Below are positions 30,646 to 52,231 of a stretch of 52,231 bases of DNA, in pieces. The notes below the pieces were generated by a model. The model did no database searches and was not told the DNA's origin. It was given only the letters and a program-made list of their open reading frames with translations. Source of the stretch: Craspedostauros australis (lineage: Eukaryota); the NCBI GenBank assembly GCA_030167865.1, contig JALAGF010002520.1, forward strand, positions 1 through 52,231. The letters run 5' to 3'. A program made the translations under genes and the position numbers. Each line of letters begins with the position of its first letter. Positions within the stretch are counted from its first letter, which is position 1.

Positions 30646-33600
30646 TCACATGAAAGCCCCGTCAAATGATCTGTTGTCTTGTTGTGGCGGTGCCGATGGT
30701 GGTGGCTGTGACGCGAATGGCATGTTGATAGAGGCACGAGGATCGAAATCAGCCATCTCTTCTCCTCCTTCTCCATGTTCTCCTTCTCCCATTGGCATGT
30801 CGAAGTACGGAGTCACTGTGTGAGTCTGGCTTGGTTCGTACGCGTTGCCATACGTAGATGCAGCAAAGTGAGGTTGCTCCATAGGTGCCTCGACTGCAGG
30901 GACAGGGAGCATACCAGTAGAACCGACGCCCTCGAACTCATGGTATGGCTGCGCGTCGTATGGATTTGTTGTTGCTGGCACACCACCAAGTTGCGCAGGT
31001 ACCGTTCGGTATGGCACTGATGATGACGATGCTGCGGCTGTTGCTGCTGGGCGCAAATAACCTTGCTGAGCCATGATTTGCGTTGATATGCTAGCTGGAC
31101 GAAGCATGCGCGGCGCACGAGTCCTCGCTGTGGATTGTGGTCGTCCAACGTATCCCTGATGACGGCCGGGAAATTGGGGACGTTGCATTTGGCGGAAGCG
31201 AGCGAATTGCGATGACTGCGGAGGCACGAACTGCTGCGGTTGCTGCAGGTAATGATACTGTTGGCTTTGGTACGGTTGGTGACGGTGCTGCTGATCCGGT
31301 TGCTGACTCGCCATCATCATCGTCGGGATCATGGGTTGTTGGATCGACATGCTTGGAGACCAGTTCTGGGAAGCGGCAAGCCCTGTCGTGTTCTGCGTAT
31401 TTACGAAGGGTGCCAGGCGATGCGTCTGGGAGGAAGGCACAAAGCCACCTCGATGCTGTGGCAACCGCAGCGGTTGGTTTGATTGCTGTGATTGCCATGG
31501 AGCCGCATGGCGATTGGCATATTCCAAGCGGTACGCCTCCTGCTCTGCCGCCTTCTGCCGCAGCAGCTGCGGTGTTGACAAGCTGGGCTCTGCAACTCGT
31601 CTGCGTTTGACGAACTGGCGGGATCTGCTGAAGGGCCTATGGACGGATCGTGGTGATACGCTACGACCCTGTCGAATATACTGCGGTCGCTGGAACGAAC
31701 ATGACGAAGATATCGGCTGGCGTTGACTTGACGGAGCACTTTGCTTGACGTCGTCGTCATGGGATAGCGATTCCAGTAACCCTTCAGCATCATTCGGATC
31801 GTGCTTGTAGTGCGTGAATGGGTTGTCCTTTTTGCTGGAGAATGCGCGGGTTTGCTTTCGCTGCATCTCTCTCTTCGCTCTCCCCCAATCCGGCCTGGAT
31901 CTACTCCTCGCAACGCTGCTCTGAAGCGACGACGATGTTGGAGACATTTGAGACATGGGACTTGCTTGCGAATTCGGAATGTCAATAAAGGCTGGTCTTG
32001 CATCAGATGGTCTCGGTGCACTCGCTGGTGTTCCAGCCTGCTCCCGAGTATCGGCATTCTGCAAAGTGGAACCAGCCAGTCCAAATCGGGTTGGAGAACG
32101 CCCATGCTGGCTGTGTTGATGCAATCGTTGTGAAGAGGCAGGCCCGCGAGCGATGGACTTGTCCGCTCCTTCTATCATCCTTGGAGTGATGGATTTCTTC
32201 GCAGCTTCTTGCGTCTGTACGTTGTGCTGCGCATCCGCCATGACTCGCGCCATCCTCTCGCTCGATGCTTGTGCCTGAGTGCCTATGTTCCTCAAAATGC
32301 CTTTCTCCATCCGACTCGTGGTCATGCTTGCAGCAACAGTCGGAACCTTCACAGAAGCCTTGCGGCATCTGGGCGTGGCCTTCGTTGCTCGTTTCGAGGG
32401 CGTCTTCGTGGACGTAGATTTCACCACGCCCCTGATATCACGCTGCTTCTGTTGGGATGGCGTCTGATGGTGATTTGAAGAACGCCGATCACAGTGTTTG
32501 CTGTTAGGTGCTGAATTCCCTTGGGCCTCCAGGGTTCTGGGTGTATTGGCATCGACTGTGATTCCATCGACGGAACAATCTCCGCTCACCTCGAAGACTT
32601 TGTCCAATCCAACGAGGGAGGCGAGCAGCCGGATATAGAGCTTGTGGAATTTGGTCGGACATTCGAATCGAAAATGTTTGGGTCCACTGACGTTGTCCTC
32701 GAAGAAGATCAAGCTACCTGGATGGTCGGCATAGACGAGGAGAGTAAAGGTGATGCTGTGCGTCTTCTTTGGGATCATGGCGATTTCAGCACCGAATGGC
32801 ACATCCGAGTCCCTGACCAAGTCGCAGAAAACGTCCGTGGGGCGATTGGATTCCTTCGTGCGTTCCACCCGAGCCTTGATGCTCAACCCACTTTGAAGGG
32901 CACTAATGACATGGCCACGCAATTCGCGTCCGAACCTTGCTGGCTGTCCCACAGCCTTGCCGATTACAGCATCGCTGGACTTGACGACATCGTCAAACGT
33001 CGCGATACCATTGAATCGCAACTTGCCGGCCTTCTCTTGATTCACCATCGGGAATTGGTACAGCACGTTGCTGTTGTCGCCCCACACGCACGTCGATATG
33101 GCTCTGGTCAAGCGAAGGCACTGGTAGGCGATGTCACCATGTTTGGAGGCATGCACACTGTGCTGCAGGGTCGCCTCCAGAACTTGCATCGCCTTGTTGC
33201 AAGTAGAGCTCATCTCCTGCGAGAGCGTGAAGTCGTTGAATTCGAACTGTGAGATGTAGCACTGAATCAAGATGAATGCCTTTTCCCAGGGCTCTTTGAC
33301 GCGGAACTTGCTGAGGGGCCCAGTGTTGATCTTGAAGCGGAGTTCCTTGTGCTTCTCGTTGAGGAATTTCTTCTCATGCCGACGGACGGGAAAGTCGATG
33401 GCTTCATCCCTGGCCAGCACATGCATGAGTTGGCACTCTGTCGCATCTGCAGGCAGAGCATGGATCCGTTCCATCATCTGCAGCGTCACCATCTTCTGAC
33501 TCATGATGTAACTTGCCGGGTTGACACGGACCAAATCGCCAGCCTTGTCTAAAGATATCGCGTTGATCCCTTGCAGCATCCGAAATGCGGATTTGCACAC

Positions 33601-36600
33601 ATCCATTACCTTGTCATCGATTTCTGCTTCGCTGGATTGCTGTCGCAGATTGACGAACAGCAGCGTTGACTGCACCCAATGAAAGCACGAACGTAGGTCC
33701 ACAATGACGCGTTGTGATATCTCGACGTTGATCGCTTGCACGATTTTGGGAAGCAGGCGACTCTGTGCCGCGCCCAACCCAGCCGCGAGGCCTTCGATGC
33801 GGTCCCGGCTCTGATCGTCAGTGACCACCACCGCCACGCCCTTCGTGTCGAGCCCGGGGCGACCGGCTCTCCCGATCATCTGCAGGATCGTGCCGGGATC
33901 GATCTCTTGGTATCCGGAGCTTCCGCCTCGCCATGTCATGGTTCCTTTGATCACGACCAGACGGGCGGGGAGGTTGACTCCCATGGAGAGCGTTGATGTG
34001 GCGCAAAGCCATTTCAGCCGTCCAGCCGCGAAGTCCTTCTCGATGAACTTCCGCGTCTGCGCATCCAGCCCCGCATGGTGGTACGCGACGCGCTTGCTCA
34101 TGCATTCATTCAATGTGCGTATTTTGGCGAACTTGTTGCCCCGGAACTGCTGACCTCTCCCGCCCATGGAAAGGAACGAAGCAAGTCGCTCGCACTCCTT
34201 CTTGGTATGGCAGAAGATGAGAGTCTGCTTGCCTTCGGAGAACTTGTGGATGATGTTGAGTACGCACTGATCCAACGAGTTCCAGAAGAAGAATTCGTTC
34301 TTGCCCTTTCTGCCGGCACCCCACACATGGACGTCCAGCGGGACCGGGCGATAGCTGGAGTCGAATTCGTATGCCTCGTTGGCCCCGATGAGCTCGGCGA
34401 TGTCTTGCAGGTTGGGCAACGTGGCGGAGACCGCGACGATTCTCATCGGGAACGACATGGCCTGCATATGCTGATGCTGAGCGAAGCTGGGTGTACTGAG
34501 ATGTTCTTTGCCGAATTGGAAGGATGATATGGCACGCTGGATGGTCTTCATCCGCACGATGATACATTCAAGCGTCGCACCACGGTTCTCATCTCCGAGA
34601 AGATGGACCTCGTCGAGAAGCACCAGCTTGATACACGCGAACAGGAGGAATCTCGTCGTCCAGTTGCGTGTCATGGAATCGAGCTTTTCCGGGGTGGTGA
34701 GAATGATGTGAGATTCGGCGAAGGTGCGGAAGGATTCGCCATCGGCATCGCCTGTGATCACTGAGACCTTGACGCCGACGTTGATTGCTGCGAATCGCTT
34801 GGACCAGTCCTCAAAGCGTTCTTCGCACAAGGCTTTGCTAGGTGAGATGTAGACGATCTTGCGCTGCCGTGACATGCTGTTCGGTTGGACCATGCTGTTG
34901 GGAGCGATGCGGTTGGACTGCATCATCAATCGTCCTTGAAATTCCAGATCGATGGACAGGAGCCGAATCATCGCCATTTCGAACAGGACGGTCTTGCCCG
35001 CTCCTGTTGGCGCTGCGACCACCACATGATCATCAGAATGGCAAAGGAGGTTGGCCATCTCGGTCTGCATGTGGTTGAAGACGCTGAACCTTCCCTTCCA
35101 CAGCTTGTCGAACGGAATCCCGAAGAAGTCTGAGATGCTGCATCGTGTGCGGTCTTGGACGGGACGATTGGCTTCGGAGAAGGTCAGAAGACGCGGCTGC
35201 AAGCCTGGTCTGTGTGGTGTGGGGGCGTAGTGATGGTGCTGAATCTCAGGAACCACAACGACAGACGACGACATTTCGGATACCGGAATGATTGAAGCCT
35301 TCGTCGAAGGACTGTTGGCGGAGCGAAACGTTCTGACGGGCTTCGGTTTCTTGCCACGTGTACTGGTAGGATCGGTTTGAGATATGTTCCCGGAAGTGTC
35401 GCGGCGTCTTGGTGGTTCATCACGATTTGGAAGCGTGGCGCTGGCCTGGACTGATCCGTCGACCACCGGCGCATGCGTCGATGATGGATTCAACTCTATG
35501 CTGTGTTTTTCGCCGCCGTCGTCGTTTCTGTGGTCGTTGTTGCGATGACTTTCAGCACTCTTCTCGGGACTTGCCTTCGGAGTGGTATCTATGATATGCT
35601 CCGGACCCGAACGTTGCTTGGGGCCGTCAGCTTGGACCCCATCAACAGCCGTGCCGGCGTCATCCAATGGCATGTGTTGATATTCTCCCTCGCTTGGATG
35701 CTCATCTAGGCTCTCTTTGAAGAAAAGGTCGTTCTCATCGTCGGAGAATTGGGTATCGTAGATGAAGGGGGCGACTTCTTCAGCAGGAACGGGCTTTGAT
35801 TTGTCGTGTGGCCGTTCGTGGCTGGCTTTGATGTCATGAGAGGGAGGCGCAGGACCACCAGGCAATGGCGTCTTCCGAAGTCGGTAGGGATTCCGTATTG
35901 GCTTTTTGGGCGAAGGAACATCCGTCTTCTCGGGGAGATTGGTCACATCGGACGTCTGGAGTGGGCGTTTCTGTGGTCGTTCGTGGGCGGGGGAGCTGCA
36001 ATGCTTGCCTTGGTTCGAAGATGGCTTGGCACTCATCGCGGACTTGGTGGCAGCGGTCTGATTGACGCTCGATTTCCCTCGAATTGGTTGGATCAGTCGT
36101 GTTCGTGGCAGAGTTGTGGATGTCGCGCACTGATATGATATCGATTGAACATAGGGTATCGATGATGATGATGATGATGAGGAAGAAGTGGAGGAACCAA
36201 ACGGAAGAAGCATCTGCATTTGCATTGAACTTGAGCTTGAACTTGCTGCGTCTTGGTGTGGTTCTGACGCAGAGGAAGAGTTGACAGTGCTTCCACTGCC
36301 GGACGTGTTCGGGGTCACCTGCGTGTTGTTGCCCTGTGGATGAGCTGGGGCTGATCGGTGCAGCTCTCGCTCTTCTTGGTCGCGCTGGACGCTGATGAGC
36401 GCTTGTTGGACGGTGGAGGGACAACGCTTCGAATCGCTGGTGCTATGGAGCTGCGACTTCGATACACCGTGCTTGGATGTAGTCGTGGTTGACCCTTCCA
36501 AGGCGATAGATGGACGAGAGATTTTGTACTTCTCAGCAAGATCGATGCTCTCTTCTTCGTTTGAGCTTTGAGATGAATCGGAACTTGCCAAGAGCTGCGA

Positions 36601-36984
36601 TGTGAGGTCCTTGCGCGGCGGATTCTGCTGGTCGGAGTCGCTACCGTTGCTGTTGCTGTCGCCGTGGTTGTCTTCCTCGTCATTGGCGGCTTGGGTTTGA
36701 GCCTGAGTGTTGTGAGTTTTTCGATTCTGAGAGTACTGTGGTGAGGCGCACGGCGAAGTTGACGAGTCGGTTTCCAACTGCTGGCGCAGCAAGATGAGCT
36801 TGTCCTTCAAACGTTGGAGTTCGCCAGTGGTCGATGATACATCGCTGGAGTCGTCGGAGGGGATATCTCTGTTGATGTCGCCATTGCGATGAGCGGCACC
36901 GCCTGATCGTCCCGTCGCGCCATGGCTTGGCGGGAGCGAAATGCTATCATCGTCATCTTGGTTGGTCAGCACCATCGTGGGCAT
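30646..36984 (-). CDS. MER3: Meiotic Ski2-like DExH DNA helicase MER3/HFM1 with Sec63 domain; long disordered N- and C-termini, intronless
   Basis: FNHMQ, APTGAGKT, YISPSKALCEER..DW, TTPEKLD, DEVHLL...RGATLE, SATLPN, YRPVPL, HHAGL, TSTLSMGVNLPA.LVVIKGT, QMIGRAGRPG, plus a Sec63-like region (RRHEKKFLN...KAFILIQ). The first ATG is at 36984; the ORF-track start at 37068 is GTG. Confidence 0.92.
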   Translation of the reverse strand: MPTMVLTNQDDDDSISLPPSHGATGRSGGAAHRNGDINRDIPSDDSSDVSSTTGELQRLKDKLILLRQQLETDSSTSPCASPQYSQNRKTHNTQAQTQAANDEEDNHGDSNSNGSDSDQQNPPRKDLTSQLLASSDSSQSSNEEESIDLAEKYKISRPSIALEGSTTTTSKHGVSKSQLHSTSDSKRCPSTVQQALISVQRDQEERELHRSAPAHPQGNNTQVTPNTSGSGSTVNSSSASEPHQDAASSSSSSMQMQMLLPFGSSTSSSSSSSSSIPYVQSISYQCATSTTLPRTRLIQPIRGKSSVNQTAATKSAMSAKPSSNQGKHCSSPAHERPQKRPLQTSDVTNLPEKTDVPSPKKPIRNPYRLRKTPLPGGPAPPSHDIKASHERPHDKSKPVPAEEVAPFIYDTQFSDDENDLFFKESLDEHPSEGEYQHMPLDDAGTAVDGVQADGPKQRSGPEHIIDTTPKASPEKSAESHRNNDHRNDDGGEKHSIELNPSSTHAPVVDGSVQASATLPNRDEPPRRRDTSGNISQTDPTSTRGKKPKPVRTFRSANSPSTKASIIPVSEMSSSVVVVPEIQHHHYAPTPHRPGLQPRLLTFSEANRPVQDRTRCSISDFFGIPFDKLWKGRFSVFNHMQTEMANLLCHSDDHVVVAAPTGAGKTVLFEMAMIRLLSIDLEFQGRLMMQSNRIAPNSMVQPNSMSRQRKIVYISPSKALCEERFEDWSKRFAAINVGVKVSVITGDADGESFRTFAESHIILTTPEKLDSMTRNWTTRFLLFACIKLVLLDEVHLLGDENRGATLECIIVRMKTIQRAISSFQFGKEHLSTPSFAQHQHMQAMSFPMRIVAVSATLPNLQDIAELIGANEAYEFDSSYRPVPLDVHVWGAGRKGKNEFFFWNSLDQCVLNIIHKFSEGKQTLIFCHTKKECERLASFLSMGGRGQQFRGNKFAKIRTLNECMSKRVAYHHAGLDAQTRKFIEKDFAAGRLKWLCATSTLSMGVNLPARLVVIKGTMTWRGGSSGYQEIDPGTILQMIGRAGRPGLDTKGVAVVVTDDQSRDRIEGLAAGLGAAQSRLLPKIVQAINVEISQRVIVDLRSCFHWVQSTLLFVNLRQQSSEAEIDDKVMDVCKSAFRMLQGINAISLDKAGDLVRVNPASYIMSQKMVTLQMMERIHALPADATECQLMHVLARDEAIDFPVRRHEKKFLNEKHKELRFKINTGPLSKFRVKEPWEKAFILIQCYISQFEFNDFTLSQEMSSTCNKAMQVLEATLQHSVHASKHGDIAYQCLRLTRAISTCVWGDNSNVLYQFPMVNQEKAGKLRFNGIATFDDVVKSSDAVIGKAVGQPARFGRELRGHVISALQSGLSIKARVERTKESNRPTDVFCDLVRDSDVPFGAEIAMIPKKTHSITFTLLVYADHPGSLIFFEDNVSGPKHFRFECPTKFHKLYIRLLASLVGLDKVFEVSGDCSVDGITVDANTPRTLEAQGNSAPNSKHCDRRSSNHHQTPSQQKQRDIRGVVKSTSTKTPSKRATKATPRCRKASVKVPTVAASMTTSRMEKGILRNIGTQAQASSERMARVMADAQHNVQTQEAAKKSITPRMIEGADKSIARGPASSQRLHQHSQHGRSPTRFGLAGSTLQNADTREQAGTPASAPRPSDARPAFIDIPNSQASPMSQMSPTSSSLQSSVARSRSRPDWGRAKREMQRKQTRAFSSKKDNPFTHYKHDPNDAEGLLESLSHDDDVKQSAPSSQRQPISSSCSFQRPQYIRQGRSVSPRSVHRPFSRSRQFVKRRRVAEPSLSTPQLLRQKAAEQEAYRLEYANRHAAPWQSQQSNQPLRLPQHRGGFVPSSQTHRLAPFVNTQNTTGLAASQNWSPSMSIQQPMIPTMMMASQQPDQQHRHQPYQSQQYHYLQQPQQFVPPQSSQFARFRQMQRPQFPGRHQGYVGRPQSTARTRAPRMLRPASISTQIMAQQGYLRPAATAAASSSSVPYRTVPAQLGGVPATTNPYDAQPYHEFEGVGSTGMLPVPAVEAPMEQPHFAASTYGNAYEPSQTHTVTPYFDMPMGEGEHGEGGEEMADFDPRASINMPFASQPPPSAPPQQDNRSFDGAFM

Positions 36985-37734
36985 GGTTGGTCGTGGTGGC
37001 CCGTTGGCGAAGACTGCGTTTCGACGATGACGACGGCAGCGTTGGCGCCAAGAAGGGTGGAGGTACACTCAGCTCACTGATACTGGGATGCTTTGGGAAT
37101 ATGAGAAATGCCAGCACCGACGCTATCGATGCCGTTGTCGCTGTCGGTAGAGTATACGCTTCGACTCTTTGATATTGCTGTCGTTGTGCACGAGTGTCTG
37201 TTTTGTGTGCAATGGCGCTATTCTTGGTGGCCGCTGATGCTGTTGTTGCTGCGCTTGTATTTTCGGCACACGAGGGAGGATGCAAAGACAGAGCGAGAAA
37301 AGATACGATTCTTCTTCGTTGATGTTCTTCGCGCCGCAAATTCTTCGCACGGAGCGTGATTTTGGCGCCAACATTTTGGATGCCCACATCAACACCGTGT
37401 AAACCTGTGGGACTCTCCGCGTCGGCATGAAAGTTCGAGCAGTTGGATGGCTTGGTGGAGAGGAAAGGCACGGCTGGATGCACCCATCCGCCTGAGTCAT
37501 CATGTGTGGCACTGCATCATGGCATCATGGAGATGCCATCCAATTTGTACCAGAAAGAGAACAGCGGCGGGACCCGAGCCCCCGCCGGAATAAGGATGGA
37601 ATTGTAAATCATTAAGTTTATGGCATTCGTATGCGACCCTGGTCTCTTTTTGTAGATTCCATGGTGGTAATTGAGCAGATGGACGATGCGCATCAGCGGT
37701 CTCCCATCGAATGGAGACGCACCGTGGGGTGTTT

Positions 37735-46668: not shown

Positions 46669-48262
46669 CTAGACCAAAGTCAAGACGGTTTGCTGCATTT
46701 TGCCAACGGACTTCATGGACGATGCCTCCACCTTGTAACCTGCCCTCCGCGCCATCTCCTCTGTCACCTTGCGCACGTAGTTGTTGTCCAAGTCCGGCTG
46801 TTCGTGCTGGAGCACCCTGCCACCCCAGAGTGTTGCTGGCGAATCAAGTTCGATGCTGATCTGGAAGCCATCACTGTTGGCGGTACCCGATTTGGTGCTG
46901 CCGCCACCGACCACAGACACGTTGGCACCGAAGGCGAAACCGTTGATGAGGAACAGGTTGACCATTTGCTTGACAGCACCGACGAAAACGTCTGCGGAAC
47001 ATAGAAAGAGAATGAGGAGGAGGTAACGTGATGCACGATGTGAGATCATCCGCTTTGAAACATACATTTCATTCACATCCCAGCATCATGCAAATGCTCC
47101 TGCAGGTGCTGCCTGCCATGCTGGAAAGACGTACCTGCGCTTGGTCTGCTGTTCGGTTCGATTTTGGGAATGGCAGCAGCGCTGTCACCGAAGGTCTCCT
47201 CGAGACCATCAAGGATCAGAGACCCCACCCTGCGTCCATGCTCTGGCACCAATTTATCGTTGGTGATGGACGGATCACGTTTCACAACCACCGTGTTGAC
47301 GCGCGGCGGCTTCCCTTCTCCTTGCTCCACCGGTTGCTCCTCTATGAAGACCATGGGCGGGTCCTGCGTCACTTCGCGGTGTATGGCTACGTGTTGAGCG
47401 AACGAAATGAGATCGAAGTAGTACGGGTTCGTGAGATCGCCTTGTTTCACGAGTCCAGGACCGAGGAGGTTTAGGTAGTTTCCAAATTCCGCCTGCCGAA
47501 TGAGGAAGAAGTCTCGTTGGAATTGATCCCTTTCAGTTTCATAACGATTCAGTTTTTGGGGTGACGAAGGGATAGATCGATGAATGCACGAGCAAAGCGA
47601 ACAATGGGCAGAAGCGAAGGTTAGTCAGTGAGCCAAGCGTGAATCCGGATACAAATGAGGCATGTGATCATGCACTTATGCAGGGCAACGTCCTCTTCAG
47701 CACCAACACTAGTTTTTTGCTAGGATATCGTCACTCACATTGCCACGCAGTCTAACTCATCCAGGACGATGTAGGATGATCGCATGAGGAGCACCGCAAA
47801 CTTCAGGTTCAGATCCCGACGCGGCACTTTCAATGGCTTTGGTCGGCCTGCTCTTTGCAACATCGATCCCACATTGTCAATCTCCTTCGTTGTGATGGGG
47901 TCTGCTGCGAAGGCTGAAAATGGCGTGAAGGTGACTGATGCGCCGACCGCTGCGACGGTCCTGAGTGTGCCGAGGACGTGGTCGCGTCGTGTTTGATGGC
48001 TGTGCGCACCTTCCATGGTGCCAGCAGTAGCCGGAGCATGCTTGTGATCTGCTTTTGGTTGAGGATTGGTAGGCTTGCGTGCGTTGGATGGAGATGTCGC
48101 ACGGCATTGCGATGGCTGATGGGTTGAGAATCCGTGGACAGCGATCGGAGCTGAGACGACCAGCATCAGCAGCAACGCTGATACGACCATCAACGAAGGC
48201 GCGACCGTGCCGCGAGACACGCTCCTTGGCGCTGTTTGTGGAAGAGTGTTGTTCTTGATCAT
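46669..48262 (-). CDS. Uncharacterised plastid protein, probably thylakoid-lumenal; exons 48262-47739, 47529-47135, 46991-46669
   Basis: Two GT-AG introns join three separate ORFs into FAVLLMRSSY..LDELDCVA-M-DQFQRDFF..RQAE...QGDLTNPYYFDLISFAQ. The signal peptide ends VHG|F (plastid-type Phe at +1), followed by a TRR...hydrophobic...AFA|A Tat-like signal. Confidence 0.82.
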
Positions 48263-48686
48263 CGTCTTCGTTTTCTGCTTCTGAATTTTCTTGTGCTGAG
48301 AATATGATCTCAAGTTGTCAGTTTTATGTCTTGCATTGGTTGATTTGAATGAGGCACCATGTTCTGTGCTTAGTACAGATGCGTATGGTGCAGAGTAGGC
48401 GTGTTGTGCTGGGTTGGCGACGTTGACCATGGATCGCGTTGCACATTGATTCGGTTTCCGATTAGGAGCTGCGGCAGATTGGATCCGTGCAAATAGCGCT
48501 TGGTGAACGATTTTGTCTACACTTGGCGGCGTAGACCGCGATGGAACTTCGGTTTCGACCTTCTTCAACTTCTTCCATGTGTACCTCGCAACGATGGTAT
48601 CCGCCACCTCCCGCACCTTTTTGGTCTGCTGGAGATAGTCGTTCTGGCTGAGAGTCCCAGGACCTCCGCGGGCCTTTAGACTTGCT

Positions 48687-51600
48687 CTACAGAAATTCAT
48701 CTAGATCGCTGTGCTCACTGCCATCGTTGCAATTGGTGTTGCCATGCTCACCGCAGCTGGCGTAACCATCGTGGCCATCGATCTTTGTGTGGCGCAGGCC
48801 TTCGTCGTCGCGGCCAACACGATCATCAAGATTATTGCCACTGGCATCGTCAGCGTTCAGATCCTCCATCATCTCATCGTAGTCCTTTTGATGTTGATGA
48901 TCCCCATCGTCCACGTGCTTTGTCTTCTTTCTGCCGTTTACAACCGATTTCTTGCGGTCGTCATCTGCAGCTTGCAATGTCACCAATAGCCGCTCCTTGA
49001 TGATGGATGCCAAGGTGTCTGGAGTGATTGTGTTCACTTCCTTTGTTCTCTCATCGCTCTCGGGATAATCGTTGTGAGCGCGTTGGTTGGTTTGGCGCGT
49101 GTCTATGTTCATAGTTGGATCCCAACCACGCACGGTGGAAAGGGCGGACGACTTCATGTGCTGGTTGCTGGAGTTCATGATCATTCGCGATAGCGCCCAC
49201 GAAACGGCAGGTACGTATCGTGACTCTCTTTCGGCTGATCTCAGTTGATGCGCAGTCAGCAGCAGGTTTGGGTTGGTCGTCTGTATGCATTTCAAGCATT
49301 CTCTCAGCCCGTTGTGCAACGCGGCTTGGATCGGTGGATGATTTAGCGGAAGTCGGCCCTATGAATAGTGCGTGGGTACGAGTTGATGCAGAAGAGAGCA
49401 AGTGTGGTTGTGAGAAACTCAGCGTTTGTTGGCACCTTGATTGACTCCTTGGATGGTAGATCCTTGAATGGGATACATCCATCAGCGTCTTACCTTGGAG
49501 AGGGTTGGGAGTGGCAACAGCGATGGTTTTGCATGCAGATGGATGAGGACGATGATTCTTCCCAAGCGCACCTTCGCTGGCATGAAGATGTGATCGTCGC
49601 TGCCTTCCATGTTGGTGGTGTACATCGAATGCGAATGCGCCACCTTGCGCTTCCGTTGATGCCCGCTCTTGTGTTGATTGGAGTGCTTGAGTGGTCCTGA
49701 GCCGAGAGTGACATTCGTACGAGTACGCGGGTCACTTCGATGAATCGAATTGGCATCGGCAAGGAACGGAAGGACTTGGTCACTATCATGAATTTCGAAA
49801 TTGTGCTTGATTTGGTGACTGTTTGAAATCCTCGACGTTGCTGCTGCTGCTGCTGCCGCCACGCTCGTTTGCACTTGTTCTTGCGTCCTGGTCTGTGTTG
49901 ATGTGGTTGCAACGGAATTTTGTTTCGCATGCTCTGAAAGATTCAGTGGATGATTGAGCGGATGACTACTGGTGCCTCTGCTGCCGCTGCTGTCCCTGTC
50001 ATCCCCGTGTGACGTCGGGATGGCTTTCAGCCCGAAGGATCCCCACACTGTCTTGCTGCGGATCCCATGCATCAAGCCACAAGCAACGGCCTCTGCTCCA
50101 TCCATCAATGGAATGCCGTTGACGAATCGGATGACTTCCATTGTGGCGGATGATGCCATTTCATCCATATTGGTTGCGTTGGCGTAGTGGGTAGGTGAAT
50201 GATGATCCTGAAGAAATTCTTGGATGGATGTTCCGTGCAAGGAAAGATCACCGTTCTCGTTGGGTTCTTCATCAATTGTGGACTGCTCACTAGCGCCGCA
50301 TACAATCATGTCGACATGAAGTTGTGCAGCGTCGCTGCTGTTGGCGGTCGCTGATCTCTTGTTGACAGCGAGCTTCTGAGTTGATTGGGCAGATCGTTGA
50401 GAGAGGCGAATGACCTGTTTGGAATGGGCGACGTTCTCGATACCAACTTGCAATGGCTGTTGCAGATGCATCGACGCTGCTTGAAGAATGTGCGCACGTC
50501 GTTCTTTGTGTGCATCGTGTGGCGAGATTTGCTTTTGACGTCGATTGCACGATGGCAAAGATGTTGGCTGCTGTTCTGATGGTGAATGATGTTGATGGTG
50601 CTGTTGGTGAGGGAATTGGTCGTTGCGGATGTTGGGATTATTCCAATCATCATTGTCATCATTGGAGCATTCTCGGAATGCATCTTCCCAATTCGTCCAG
50701 TGCGTAACCTTGTGCTCGTCTTTGCCGTTGCTGCTGCCAATGTCGTCGTCACTATCATCGCTGCTGTTGCTATGTGGTGTTTCCACGGCAGTATGATTAG
50801 TCTTCGTTACATTCGGTTGGCCATAACCAGCATTCAGGTGCTTGACGCCTTGCGCGGTCGATGTGTGCGGCGAGAGTGTTCGAATGTAGATCGGAACAGA
50901 CGAAAGGGTCGGCGCGAAGACTTCCAGCCGGCATGGGAGATCAGGTCCAATCCATTGGAATCTGGCAAAGTAAGCAGCCAGTCGTGGCCATGCGCTTCTT
51001 GCTCCGGCCCCTCCCTGCGAGACACAACATGCAAACGTTGGCATCAGTACGTAAGAGTATATGAGAGTAGAATGCGATGGAGTGCATATTAATAGAGTGA
51101 AGTGGAGTAGAGTAGAGCAGAACAAAACAGAAGAGAGGTGAGACAACCATGGCTGTGATCACGTGTCAGCTGTCGCAAACGAGCAGTCCAAAACAAACGT
51201 GTCTCTATGTTGCGAGACAGAACGCACAGATCAATGAACTCACCGGAACTAACAGACTGACGCAAGTCCCGCTCTCCTTGGGGTTGCTCTTGACGAGCTT
51301 CTCCTTCTTGTGACACAGCACCTTGTCCTTGGCAGTGTTGACGATGAAGAACGCTCTCGTCAATGACTTGGAAGCCGCTCGTGCCGATGTGATGCATGCG
51401 AAGGATTTGGGGACGAGCCGTTGTGCGTGGACCAGGCAGAGGGTGAGACCAATTCCGTAGCGACCAGCCGTGGCAGTTGCGGCCTTGCTGGTGTGGAAGG
51501 CGTTGACGCATCGTTGGGTGTCCGCCATGCCGCAGCCATTATCAGACACTGTAACCTGGAGGATGGAGTCGTCACAGTCATCGTTGCGATCGCTGTCATC

Positions 51601-52101
51601 ATTGTCATCGTTGTCATCATTGTCGTGGTTGTGATTGTTGGATGTGTAGGGTTGTATCTCCACTCTCACACGAAGGTTGGACTGATAGGTATGTCCTGGT
51701 TGCGACTGATCATCTCTGGCACTGCCATTCTTGCTGCATACTAGTATGCCATTGGCTTTGCCATTGCCAACACTGTGGCCTCTCTTCGATGAGGAACGCT
51801 TCATGTCTGATTGCTTTGCTGTTGCTGTTGTTGTAGTTGTTCTTTGCAAAGTGGCACATGCATCAACAGCATTGTCGACAAGCTCCTTGACGATCTGGCA
51901 GAAGGCATCGCCGCTTGTGTGGTCGTCAACAGCATCAGCGGTGCTGCCAGCAGTATCTTGCTTGTGTTGTCTGCCTTTGCCAGTTGTACTCGCAACAGAC
52001 TGATGTCGCAATAGAGATGCTGAAGTCGCCCGCAGGATGCCTGAGCTCTCTCCGCCGAAGCCACCCACTTGCGGGTTGGCATGGAAGGCACGGAGGGCCA
52101 T
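48687..52101 (-). CDS. Divergent DNA topoisomerase VI subunit B-like protein (TOP6B/TOPOVIBL family), 1016 aa; exons 52101-51244, 51014-49494, 49358-48687
   Basis: GHKL motifs KELVDNAVDA, VSDNGCGM, GRYGIG, SGT. Transducer-like segments VIRFVNGIPL, VWGSFGL, PTLSK, LHNGLRECL...ERESRYVPAVS align by eye to TOP6B (RFANRIPL, NWxxY, GTGKE, ...RYIPDV). Both introns are phase-0 GT-AG. Confidence 0.83.
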
Positions 52102-52231
52102 GGTATGGGTGCACTTCGAGTATTATATGCTCTTGCCTCGCTCTTTCCGTCTCCTTGCCTTGCTTTTGCGTTGTCTTTCGTTGGTCTTGGTTCTTGGTTC
52201 TGTCCGCCTTCAGCCACATCGCTCAGCTTGG

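Follow-up and report, generated by a model that had tools for sequence, protein, structure and literature searches.

A diatom relative of topoisomerase VI-B without an H2TH domain: a TopoVIB-like gene of Craspedostauros australis and candidate partner of SPO11-2

Based on two surveys of the eukaryotic B-type subunits of topoisomerase VI (Topo VI), it is the absence of one domain, the H2TH, that marks off the TopoVIB-like family (TOPOVIBL, MTOPVIB or TOP6BL) from TopoVIB itself, and in the accounts given there every eukaryotic TOP6B examined keeps that domain (PMC9665070, PMC11302465). For "several chromalveolates" the text of Brinkmeier et al. (2022, PMC9665070) describes TOPOVIBL proteins with a conserved N-terminal strap, conserved N, G1 and G2 boxes, no H2TH and a structure very much like archaeal TopoVIB's, the worked example of this conserved-GHKL form being the oomycete Aphanomyces astaci; the GHKL folds of the TopoVIB-like proteins of stramenopiles, alveolates and Rhizaria (SAR) are likewise said in print to "closely resemble" the canonical one. 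Here we analyse a gene on the minus strand of a 52,231-nucleotide contig of the diatom Craspedostauros australis (GenBank assembly GCA_030167865.1, contig JALAGF010002520.1, positions 1 to 52,231; the whole stretch is called the window below), which codes in three exons for a protein of 1016 residues. We read it as a diatom TOPOVIBL because it fits the published conserved-GHKL class feature by feature and fails the H2TH and the WKxY motif of TOP6B.

In diatoms, SPO11-2 (induced in sexual reproduction) occurs beside SPO11-3/TOP VIA, and these are the only entries that Patil et al. (2015) give for the formation of double-strand breaks, with no B-type partner (PMC4647503). The text of Allen et al. 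(2024, PMC11302465) has Topo VI, with its components SPO11-3, TOP6B, RHL1 and BIN4, confirmed in at least 16 SAR orders. Since the legend of Figure 5 in that article counts 4 diatom orders among its 20 (4 further ones being apicomplexan, where the enzyme is absent), diatoms presumably have a canonical TOP6B as well; an explicit statement that they do was not found in the literature. Another stramenopile, Blastocystis, is reported with a Top6BL in PMC5608401. In the full-text literature no pairing of TOPOVIBL or MTOPVIB with diatoms was found, although the supplements of PMC9665070 may list diatom sequences, and a 2025 study of diatom sex markers mentions neither topoisomerase nor GHKL nor HATPase (PMC12618581).

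The initial annotation of this locus, made from the DNA letters, had set canonical TOP6B against degenerate meiotic TOPOVIBL and proposed the gene as an evolutionary intermediate between the two. This contrast is out of date, given the conserved-GHKL, H2TH-less TOPOVIBL that the text of PMC9665070 describes for chromalveolates, and the supposed intermediate corresponds to a class which, from the relevant parts of PMC9665070 and PMC11302465, is already published in SAR protists. What is new here is an unnamed diatom member of the known conserved-GHKL TOPOVIBL class, and not a new intermediate. We are confident that the protein is a Topo VI-B relative without H2TH; on balance, and less firmly, we favour the view that the gene is a diatom TopoVIB-like gene of the conserved-GHKL form whose product would be the meiotic partner of SPO11-2. 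The confidence in the role is lower than in the classification because expression and binding, as well as a second diatom TOP6B, are inferred.

The gene runs from an ATG at 52101, with an in-frame stop 7 codons 5' of it, to a stop at 48689-48687. When spliced, the three exons (Table 1) give the 1016 residues followed by one terminal stop, with no internal stops, and reading through either intron 1 or intron 2 leads to a stop within 4-13 codons. Against a hidden Markov model (HMM) built from 23 homologues, the spliced protein scores 711.5 bits over the whole length, with exon 1 ending at position 268 of the model, exon 2 ending at position 630 (its final codon is the invariant Lys793) and exon 3 aligned as far as position 797 of 897; the consensus of the 23 full-length members is continuous across both splice junctions. 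By a hand count over the 150 matches listed in the full HMM search, fragments with their end at positions 268-270 number 41 and those with their end at 630-636 number 50, as expected of exon-wise gene calls on intron-bearing contigs, and 8 of the 45 family proteins collected stop a few residues past PTLSK, having been read on into intron 2. Among 36 metagenome relatives compared at the DNA level, intron 1 (67-177 nucleotides, GT..AG) occupies the codon boundary that it has in the window in 12 of the 13 loci resolved, the other one being without it, and intron 2 (62-196 nucleotides) follows the lysine codon directly in 18 of 24, with 5 loci lacking the intron and 1 unresolved; these counts cover pattern-resolved loci only, some of which are near-duplicates of one another. 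The proposal that three open-reading-frame fragments join through canonical introns into one protein is thus upheld, both by the score against the family model and by the introns shared with relatives, and we regard the predicted gene model as sound, both intron positions being common to the relatives.

It is very improbable, in our view, that the gene is non-functional, whether as a chance join of open frames or as a decaying pseudogene. Such a reading could appeal to the 258 residues (of 1016) that fall in columns which most relatives lack, and to the fact that no exon-joining transcript was seen in one small sequencing run, guessed to be RNA, which is uninformative on the splice joints either way: with high identity, contigs of this run span 48671-48908, 48980-49130 and 52145-52231, and another two pieces, short and of low complexity, match other contigs. 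The match to the family model over the whole length, the 20 of 20 functional positions found intact, the intron positions shared with relatives and the lack of internal stops all speak against it.

Two side observations concern the introns. If intron 2 were retained, the protein would end 3 codons further on, at ..PTLSKVRR in the window, and what would be left is a GHKL-transducer fragment that has lost the helices predicted to contact SPO11. A database protein of 720 residues (P0033) carries PAS and HisKA domains and has a C-terminus that resembles exon 1 of the family and reads into intron 1, its end, ..SGTCVSLLVPV.., being nearly letter for letter that of the intron 1 read-through in the window; a close relative's 2.4-kb contig was probably mis-called here as one fused gene.

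The relation to Topo VI-B was followed through profiles, through a distant homologue and through structure models. In Pfam, exon 1 matches HATPase_c alone (E 1.6e-7). Its best NCBIfam match is the Topo VI-B family NF003218 (E 6.5e-10, 38.1 bits), followed by TIGR01052 top6b (3.2e-6, 25.8 bits) and MutL (1.8e-4), with scores that lie far below the curated cut-offs of 274 bits for NF003218 and 380.7 bits for TIGR01052 (that of PF09239 is 24 bits). NF003218 is also the top NCBIfam match in 6 of the 6 GHKL-bearing family proteins tested, starting in one of them (P0043) at residue 6 and profile position 21, and residues 288-331, counted within exon 2, match the Topo VI-B entry NF011438 at E 0.042. 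The member found in the brown alga Ectocarpus, which the family profile reaches at E 9.3e-42, scores 24.0 bits (E 3.7e-5) for Topo-VIb_trans, exactly at the cut-off, and its PDB matches are Topo VI-B in 4 of 5 cases; a precomputed PF09239 assignment is found on 2 of its 8 brown-alga relatives. As canonical reference we took 8 bacterial Top6B genes (loci L005-L012), from genomes with PF09239 at about 1e-60, such genes being found in 13 of the 401 genomes searched. Aligned profile to profile with hhalign, the family and these 8 genes agree with a probability of 97.2% in the GHKL domain (E 3.3e-11, 171 columns) and of 95.5% in the C-terminal halves, that is, the transducer (E 1.6e-8, 261 columns). 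Several of the 8 reference genes start with long Lys/Ala-rich tails before the strap; four other bacterial GHKL loci related to the query, found in prokaryote genomes, were not Top6B. Searched singly against the PDB sequences, the exons gave chance low-complexity matches only, and exon 2 had no usable match in the ESM Atlas.

The AlphaFold2 model of the closest homologue (P0004, 763 residues, 40% identical) has a mean predicted local distance difference test score (pLDDT) of 69.8 and a predicted template modelling score (pTM) of 0.70. In Foldseek, ranks 1-15 as listed are all Topo VI-B (E 9.6e-15 to 1.6e-11), and the next ones are ParE (1.4e-8) and then GyrB, PMS2 and Hsp90 near 1e-7. Ranks 1-10 of VIA-align belong to Topo VI-B as well (Z 19.0-21.5, 336-396 residues, root-mean-square deviation 3.1-7.3 Å, 17-20% identity), with model residues 1 to about 590 aligned to chain residues 11 to about 470, and GyrB comes next at Z 16-17. 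The model of exon 2 of the window itself (pLDDT 59.4), compared by VIA with 48,161 chains, has two Topo VI-B transducers on top, 2zbk_B (Z 5.5, 107 residues, deviation 3.4, chain 318-432) and 2q2e_B (Z 5.0). An identity as GyrB/ParE, MutL or Hsp90 was considered and rejected, these proteins ranking below Topo VI-B in Foldseek, VIA and NCBIfam, and Pfam finds in the window exons or the family members none of the C-terminal domains of that kind (Toprim, MutL C-terminal, Hsp90 middle/C). The link to Topo VI-B is firm through the Ectocarpus member, the hhalign comparison with bacterial Top6B and the AlphaFold2 model of the homologue, so that the proposed TopoVI-B-like identity stands, with NF003218 as best match, both hhalign regions in agreement and Topo VI-B first for the P0004 model.

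Conservation was followed in a motif alignment of 33 sequences, namely the window protein, 30 diatom or unnamed members, P0189 and the Ectocarpus member, whose record is partial. In the strap segment AFHANPQVGGF (residues 5-15), N9, P10, G13, G14 and F15 are present in 32 of the 33, the Ectocarpus record being the partial one, and the alignment of the P0004 model with Topo VI-B begins within the strap, model residue 1 corresponding to chain residue 11. Besides the box residues of Table 1, K206 is invariant in all 33. In the transducer, hhalign pairs the family pattern RMVN.IPLL with RFANRVPLL of bacterial Top6B and sets PLPTLSKGRLP opposite VPFTSESKEAV; the lysine of this last motif is aligned, through the Ectocarpus homologue, to chain residue 427 of 2zbk_B, which we take to be the switch lysine in the Top6B of S. 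shibatae. In the window protein, none of the 20 functional positions checked is lost. Judged from the sequence, the ATP-site signature is intact, its residues being invariant in 33 of 33, and the strap, the N, G1, G2 and G3 boxes, RFxNxxPL, WxxF and the lysine of PTLSK that the initial annotation had listed are all there and conserved.

In the position of the H2TH the protein has a linker, described from the start as rich in H, N, D and Q; this description is confirmed by composition (63 of 125 residues are S, H, N, D or Q), by predicted disorder and by variable length. In the AlphaFold2 model, residues 51-145 of exon 2 (337-431 of the protein) have pLDDT below 50 and no secondary structure. 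Over the 33 sequences the linker measures 31-159 residues, and an H2TH is unlikely at 31, because the shortest linker is too small for a domain of that size. In the P0004 model the region is disordered at 290-322 and then forms a 28-residue helix, which with one of 5 residues makes up all the helices there, and in hhalign the H2TH columns of Top6B have no confident counterpart (zero confidence). An H2TH fold, which had been named as the finding that would overturn the proposal, is not predicted in the linker; the domain is absent. The WKxY motif of Top6B is changed too: the family has W(N/G)SF, with N or G in place of the Lys and with Phe for Tyr in 26 of 33, in a stretch where hhalign sets the family W.SFGL opposite WRSYGL and where G614 and L615 are invariant in 33 of 33.

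These differences bear on whether the gene could be the diatom's own canonical TOP6B, acting with SPO11-3/TOP VIA, RHL1 and BIN4, which would have diverged fast, lost the H2TH and gained low-complexity inserts. We consider this unlikely. The protein retains the strap, the four Bergerat boxes, the transducer Asn, the switch Lys and the glycine of G3, as does the TOP6B described in PMC11302465; both by fold and by family its best match is Topo VI-B, and a second diatom TOP6B is so far presumed. Nevertheless, the eukaryotic TOP6B covered by the accounts in PMC9665070 and PMC11302465 all keep the H2TH, whose absence marks the B-like family; the score for NF003218 is 38.1 bits against a cut-off of 274, there is no PF09239 match in the window, and both the Lys and the Tyr of WKxY are replaced. 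The long branches of the family (median tip 0.64) recall the fast evolution that the text of PMC12642689 gives for vertebrate TOP6BL, and brown algae, in which canonical TopoVI has been studied according to PMC9665070, also carry an H2TH-less member of the family.

Turning to the C-terminal half, the helices which in Topo VI bind the A subunit are conserved in the family, and in the P0004 model helices follow the switch lysine at 553-573, 581-606, 611-625 and 636-683. The window protein has long inserts at 92-136 and 626-683, the second being a lineage-specific insertion in the transducer. We also observed, at residues 690-745 (about 49640-49805 of the window, minus strand), a family-conserved block PTF...DS.QVAPF.....H.L followed by an acidic patch and KRK, which is set in the transducer, flanked by the WxSF strand on one side and the strand to the switch lysine on the other, and has no counterpart in bacterial Top6B. 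At the end of the chain, many pennate members (P0004, P0006, P0008, P0011, P0013-P0015, P0018, P0019, P0023, P0032) finish in an acidic run and WW, and the group with the named Thalassiosira species finishes in another conserved motif, SEWSSQYGEVV.GHFF. In the last column but one, 23 of 33 sequences have W, and the window has F (DEFL, 48690-48701). This end motif may be a short docking site for some partner, positioned like the REC114-binding end of animal TOPOVIBL.

Taking the gene as a conserved-GHKL TOPOVIBL, we propose a mechanism in which the two GHKL domains would take up ATP and come together by way of the N-terminal strap, Lys793 of the transducer would sense the gamma-phosphate, and the C-terminal transducer helices would bind the N-terminal region of SPO11-2, the meiosis-induced diatom SPO11 paralogue. 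The nucleotide-driven dimerisation would then join two SPO11 subunits, leading to the meiotic double-strand break, and, without an H2TH and with a weakened WKxY, the protein would not be built for strand passage. On this reasoning it probably acts as an ATP-closed clamp uniting two SPO11 subunits. A further step, which we put forward tentatively and hold short of probable, is that the ochrophyte SPO11-2 complex has a working ATPase-clamp B subunit, in which ATP, dimerisation by the strap and Lys793 would gate cleavage as in archaeal Topo VI, and in which the acidic-WW motif and the transducer insert would recruit further regulators; if this is true, diatoms would be the most tractable system for the role of ATP in the SPO11 complex.

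The same features could also belong to a GHKL ATPase that derives from Topo VI-B and is now free of any SPO11 paralogue, for instance an ochrophyte chromatin or DNA-repair clamp. For this, one can say that SPO11 binding is so far a prediction and that the family's own transducer insert (PTF...DS.QVAPF) and the acidic-aromatic end motif point to partners not known for Topo VI. We nevertheless think it improbable, since the C-terminal transducer helices, the A-subunit binders of Topo VI, are conserved and the architecture equals that of the published SAR TOPOVIBL. Moreover, the text of PMC12642689 has SPO11 requiring a B-type partner wherever tested, and no other diatom candidate is known.

Several points weigh against reading the gene as a TOPOVIBL that partners SPO11-2. 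The partnership with SPO11-2, the meiotic role and the use of ATP are what we infer, and the second, H2TH-bearing TOP6B of diatoms is drawn from the text and a legend of PMC11302465; in the text of that article, Pythium alone was modelled for the stramenopiles, so that its diatom "TOP6B" calls could in principle be this H2TH-less family. The strong structural match is that of the model of a 40% identical homologue and not that of the window protein, whose exon-2 model gave no Foldseek match at E <= 0.001 (the best Topo VI-B row is at E 1.4), the VIA scores of this exon-2 model being weak and within 1 Z of the transducers of ParE (4.9), GyrB and MutL. No Pfam family, PF09239 included, was found on exons 2 and 3 of the window, and only 1 of the 23 members touches PF09239 (Topo-VIb_trans), at E 0.044. 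Against the PDB sequences the family profile is weak, with 2zbk_B at E 0.14 in four collinear pieces and MutL at E 0.066. Finally, a language-model lead is all that points to orthology with the oomycete TOPOVIBL already published: in the ESM Atlas, the nearest cluster of one Nitzschia member is an oomycete-dominated 483-residue HATPase_c protein, with a score of 0.98.

The family to which the protein belongs is large and spread over diatoms and brown algae. A search with exon 1 among longer proteins gave 42 matches, with best identities of 40-42%; an organism is given for 13 of them, in each case a diatom. None of the 42 has a Topo VI-B name or Pfam label, the annotations of relatives being "hypothetical", "HATPase", "histidine kinase-like ATPase" and "anti-sigma factor"; the gene had at first been called hidden, which is right in so far as it goes unnamed as Topo VI-B and goes too far in that it is annotated in other diatoms, as a hypothetical or HATPase protein. 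Against 1.84 billion representatives, the family HMM finds 664 proteins at E <= 1e-3, 549 at 1e-10 and 355 at 1e-30, and all 150 matches listed in that search are family members; proteins of the family are about 700 to 1165 residues long (1016 in the window). With the Ectocarpus member as query, 9 brown-alga matches only were obtained (8 further proteins), and neither an oomycete protein nor canonical TOP6B was reached. In a tree of 39 members from a quick maximum-likelihood search, the window protein falls in a clade with Pseudo-nitzschia, Nitzschia and Cylindrotheca (the named Bacillariales; Shimodaira-Hasegawa-like approximate likelihood-ratio test, SH-aLRT, 99), sister to the other nine, and the brown algae stand apart on a long branch of their own; the tips are long too, their median of 0.64 being in changes per column.

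Table 1. Parts of the TopoVIB-like gene and of its predicted protein, with positions in the window.
Feature	Position	Strand	Description
Exon 1	52101-51244	-	286 residues (1-286); strap at the N-terminus and the larger part of the GHKL ATPase domain; translates open; ends at family HMM position 268
Intron 1	51243-51015	-	229 nucleotides, GTGAGT...CAG, phase 0
Exon 2	51014-49494	-	507 residues (287-793); last GHKL helix and strands, linker, transducer sheet up to the switch lysine; translates open
Intron 2	49493-49359	-	135 nucleotides, GTAAGA...TAG, phase 0, immediately 3' of the switch-lysine codon
Exon 3	49358-48690, stop to 48687	-	223 residues (794-1016); C-terminal transducer helices and acidic low-complexity tail; translates open
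N-terminal strap	52045..52101	-	residues 1-19; family MALRAF..NP..GGFG.ES, conserved from Met1
N box KELVDNAVDA	51859..51888	-	residues 72-81; E73, N77, D80 in 33/33; paired by hhalign with the N box of bacterial Top6B
G1 box SDNGCGM	51526..51546	-	residues 186-192; D187, G189, G191 in 33/33; paired with Top6B DNGPG
G2 box GRYGIGLT	51442..51465	-	residues 213-220; G213, G216, G218, T220 in 33/33
G3 box ESGTCV	51259..51276	-	residues 276-281; G278, T279 in 33/33; paired with Top6B GT
Linker in H2TH position	50499..50873	-	residues 334-458; 63/125 residues S, H, N, D or Q
Transducer	49128..50498	-	residues about 459-870, spans intron 2; aligned by hhalign to the Top6B C-terminal half
RFVNGIPL	50106..50129	-	residues 582-589; R582, N585, P588 in 33/33; paired with RFANRVPL of Top6B
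WGSF (WKxY position)	50034..50045	-	residues 610-613; W610 in 33/33, F in 26/33; paired with Top6B WRSY
PTLSK, switch lysine Lys793	49494..49508	-	residues 789-793; K in 33/33; paired with the Lys of Top6B SESKEA
C-terminal acidic tail	48690..49127	-	residues 871-1016, ends DEFL

The other genes nearby in the window are of the ordinary eukaryotic nuclear kind. On the minus strand, 30646-37068 is a single frame of 2140 residues with one DEAD / Helicase_C / Sec63 cassette at residues 667-1343 and no second cassette, which matches ASCC3, Slh1 and Brr2 at about 1e-112. A layout with one Sec63 helicase cassette is that of the meiotic helicase MER3/HFM1; if this frame is MER3/HFM1, a second meiotic gene would lie about 12 kb from the TopoVIB-like gene. 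The frame directly downstream of the latter (47735-48700, minus strand) has a hydrophobic signal-like stretch and then a Phe (..AVHGFS..), with no Pfam family, an arrangement which we take to resemble diatom plastid-targeting presequences.

Naming the family fills a gap, given that the published diatom meiotic toolkits, in the lists available, have SPO11-2 and no B-type partner, and it provides a second candidate meiosis marker for environmental transcriptomes. At least 13 named diatom records, now labelled "histidine kinase-like ATPase", "anti-sigma factor" or "hypothetical", are corrected by it. Additionally, it offers a candidate partner of SPO11 whose ATP site is apparently intact, in organisms that can be brought to sexual reproduction in culture. 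Our view of how TopoVI-like proteins evolved stays as it was, because the conserved-GHKL class was already described for SAR.

Among the closest known systems are the SAR TOPOVIBL such as that of Aphanomyces astaci, with which the protein shares the strap, N, G1 and G2 boxes that are conserved, a linker without conservation for the H2TH, the transducer Asn, the switch Lys, a WKxY remnant reduced to its Trp, and then C-terminal helices and a tail; this comparison is by published description, the main text of PMC9665070 naming no diatom. The diatom family differs from them in being much longer, owing to low-complexity inserts, and in having the conserved transducer insert and the acidic-WW end. 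With canonical Top6B (S. shibatae 2zbk/1mx0, M. mazei 2q2e/9o0g and the bacterial ones) it has in common the strap, the folds of the GHKL domain and of the transducer, the residues of the ATP site, RF.N..PL, the switch Lys and, in the stalk helix, a conserved YIP, whereas the window protein lacks the H2TH, has W..F for WKxY, scores 38 against 274 bits for NF003218, contains long disordered inserts and would have SPO11-2, rather than Top6A/SPO11-3, as its likely partner. The apicomplexan pTOP6B, which the text of PMC11302465 reassigns to the TopoVIB-like proteins, is similarly a SAR protein with a near-canonical GHKL and no H2TH; it is reported there without the G3-box glycine, whereas G278 and T279 are invariant in the diatom family, and with a small helix bundle, whereas the predicted structure of P0004 keeps long helices after the switch Lys, a distinction that sets the two apart by description. 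Finally, mouse TOPOVIBL and Arabidopsis MTOPVIB resemble it in the linker that stands for the H2TH, in a fast-evolving sequence and in a C-terminal tail that possibly binds a partner; according to the text of PMC9665070 their Bergerat motifs are degenerate or missing and they have no strap, whereas the window protein keeps all these motifs and the strap.

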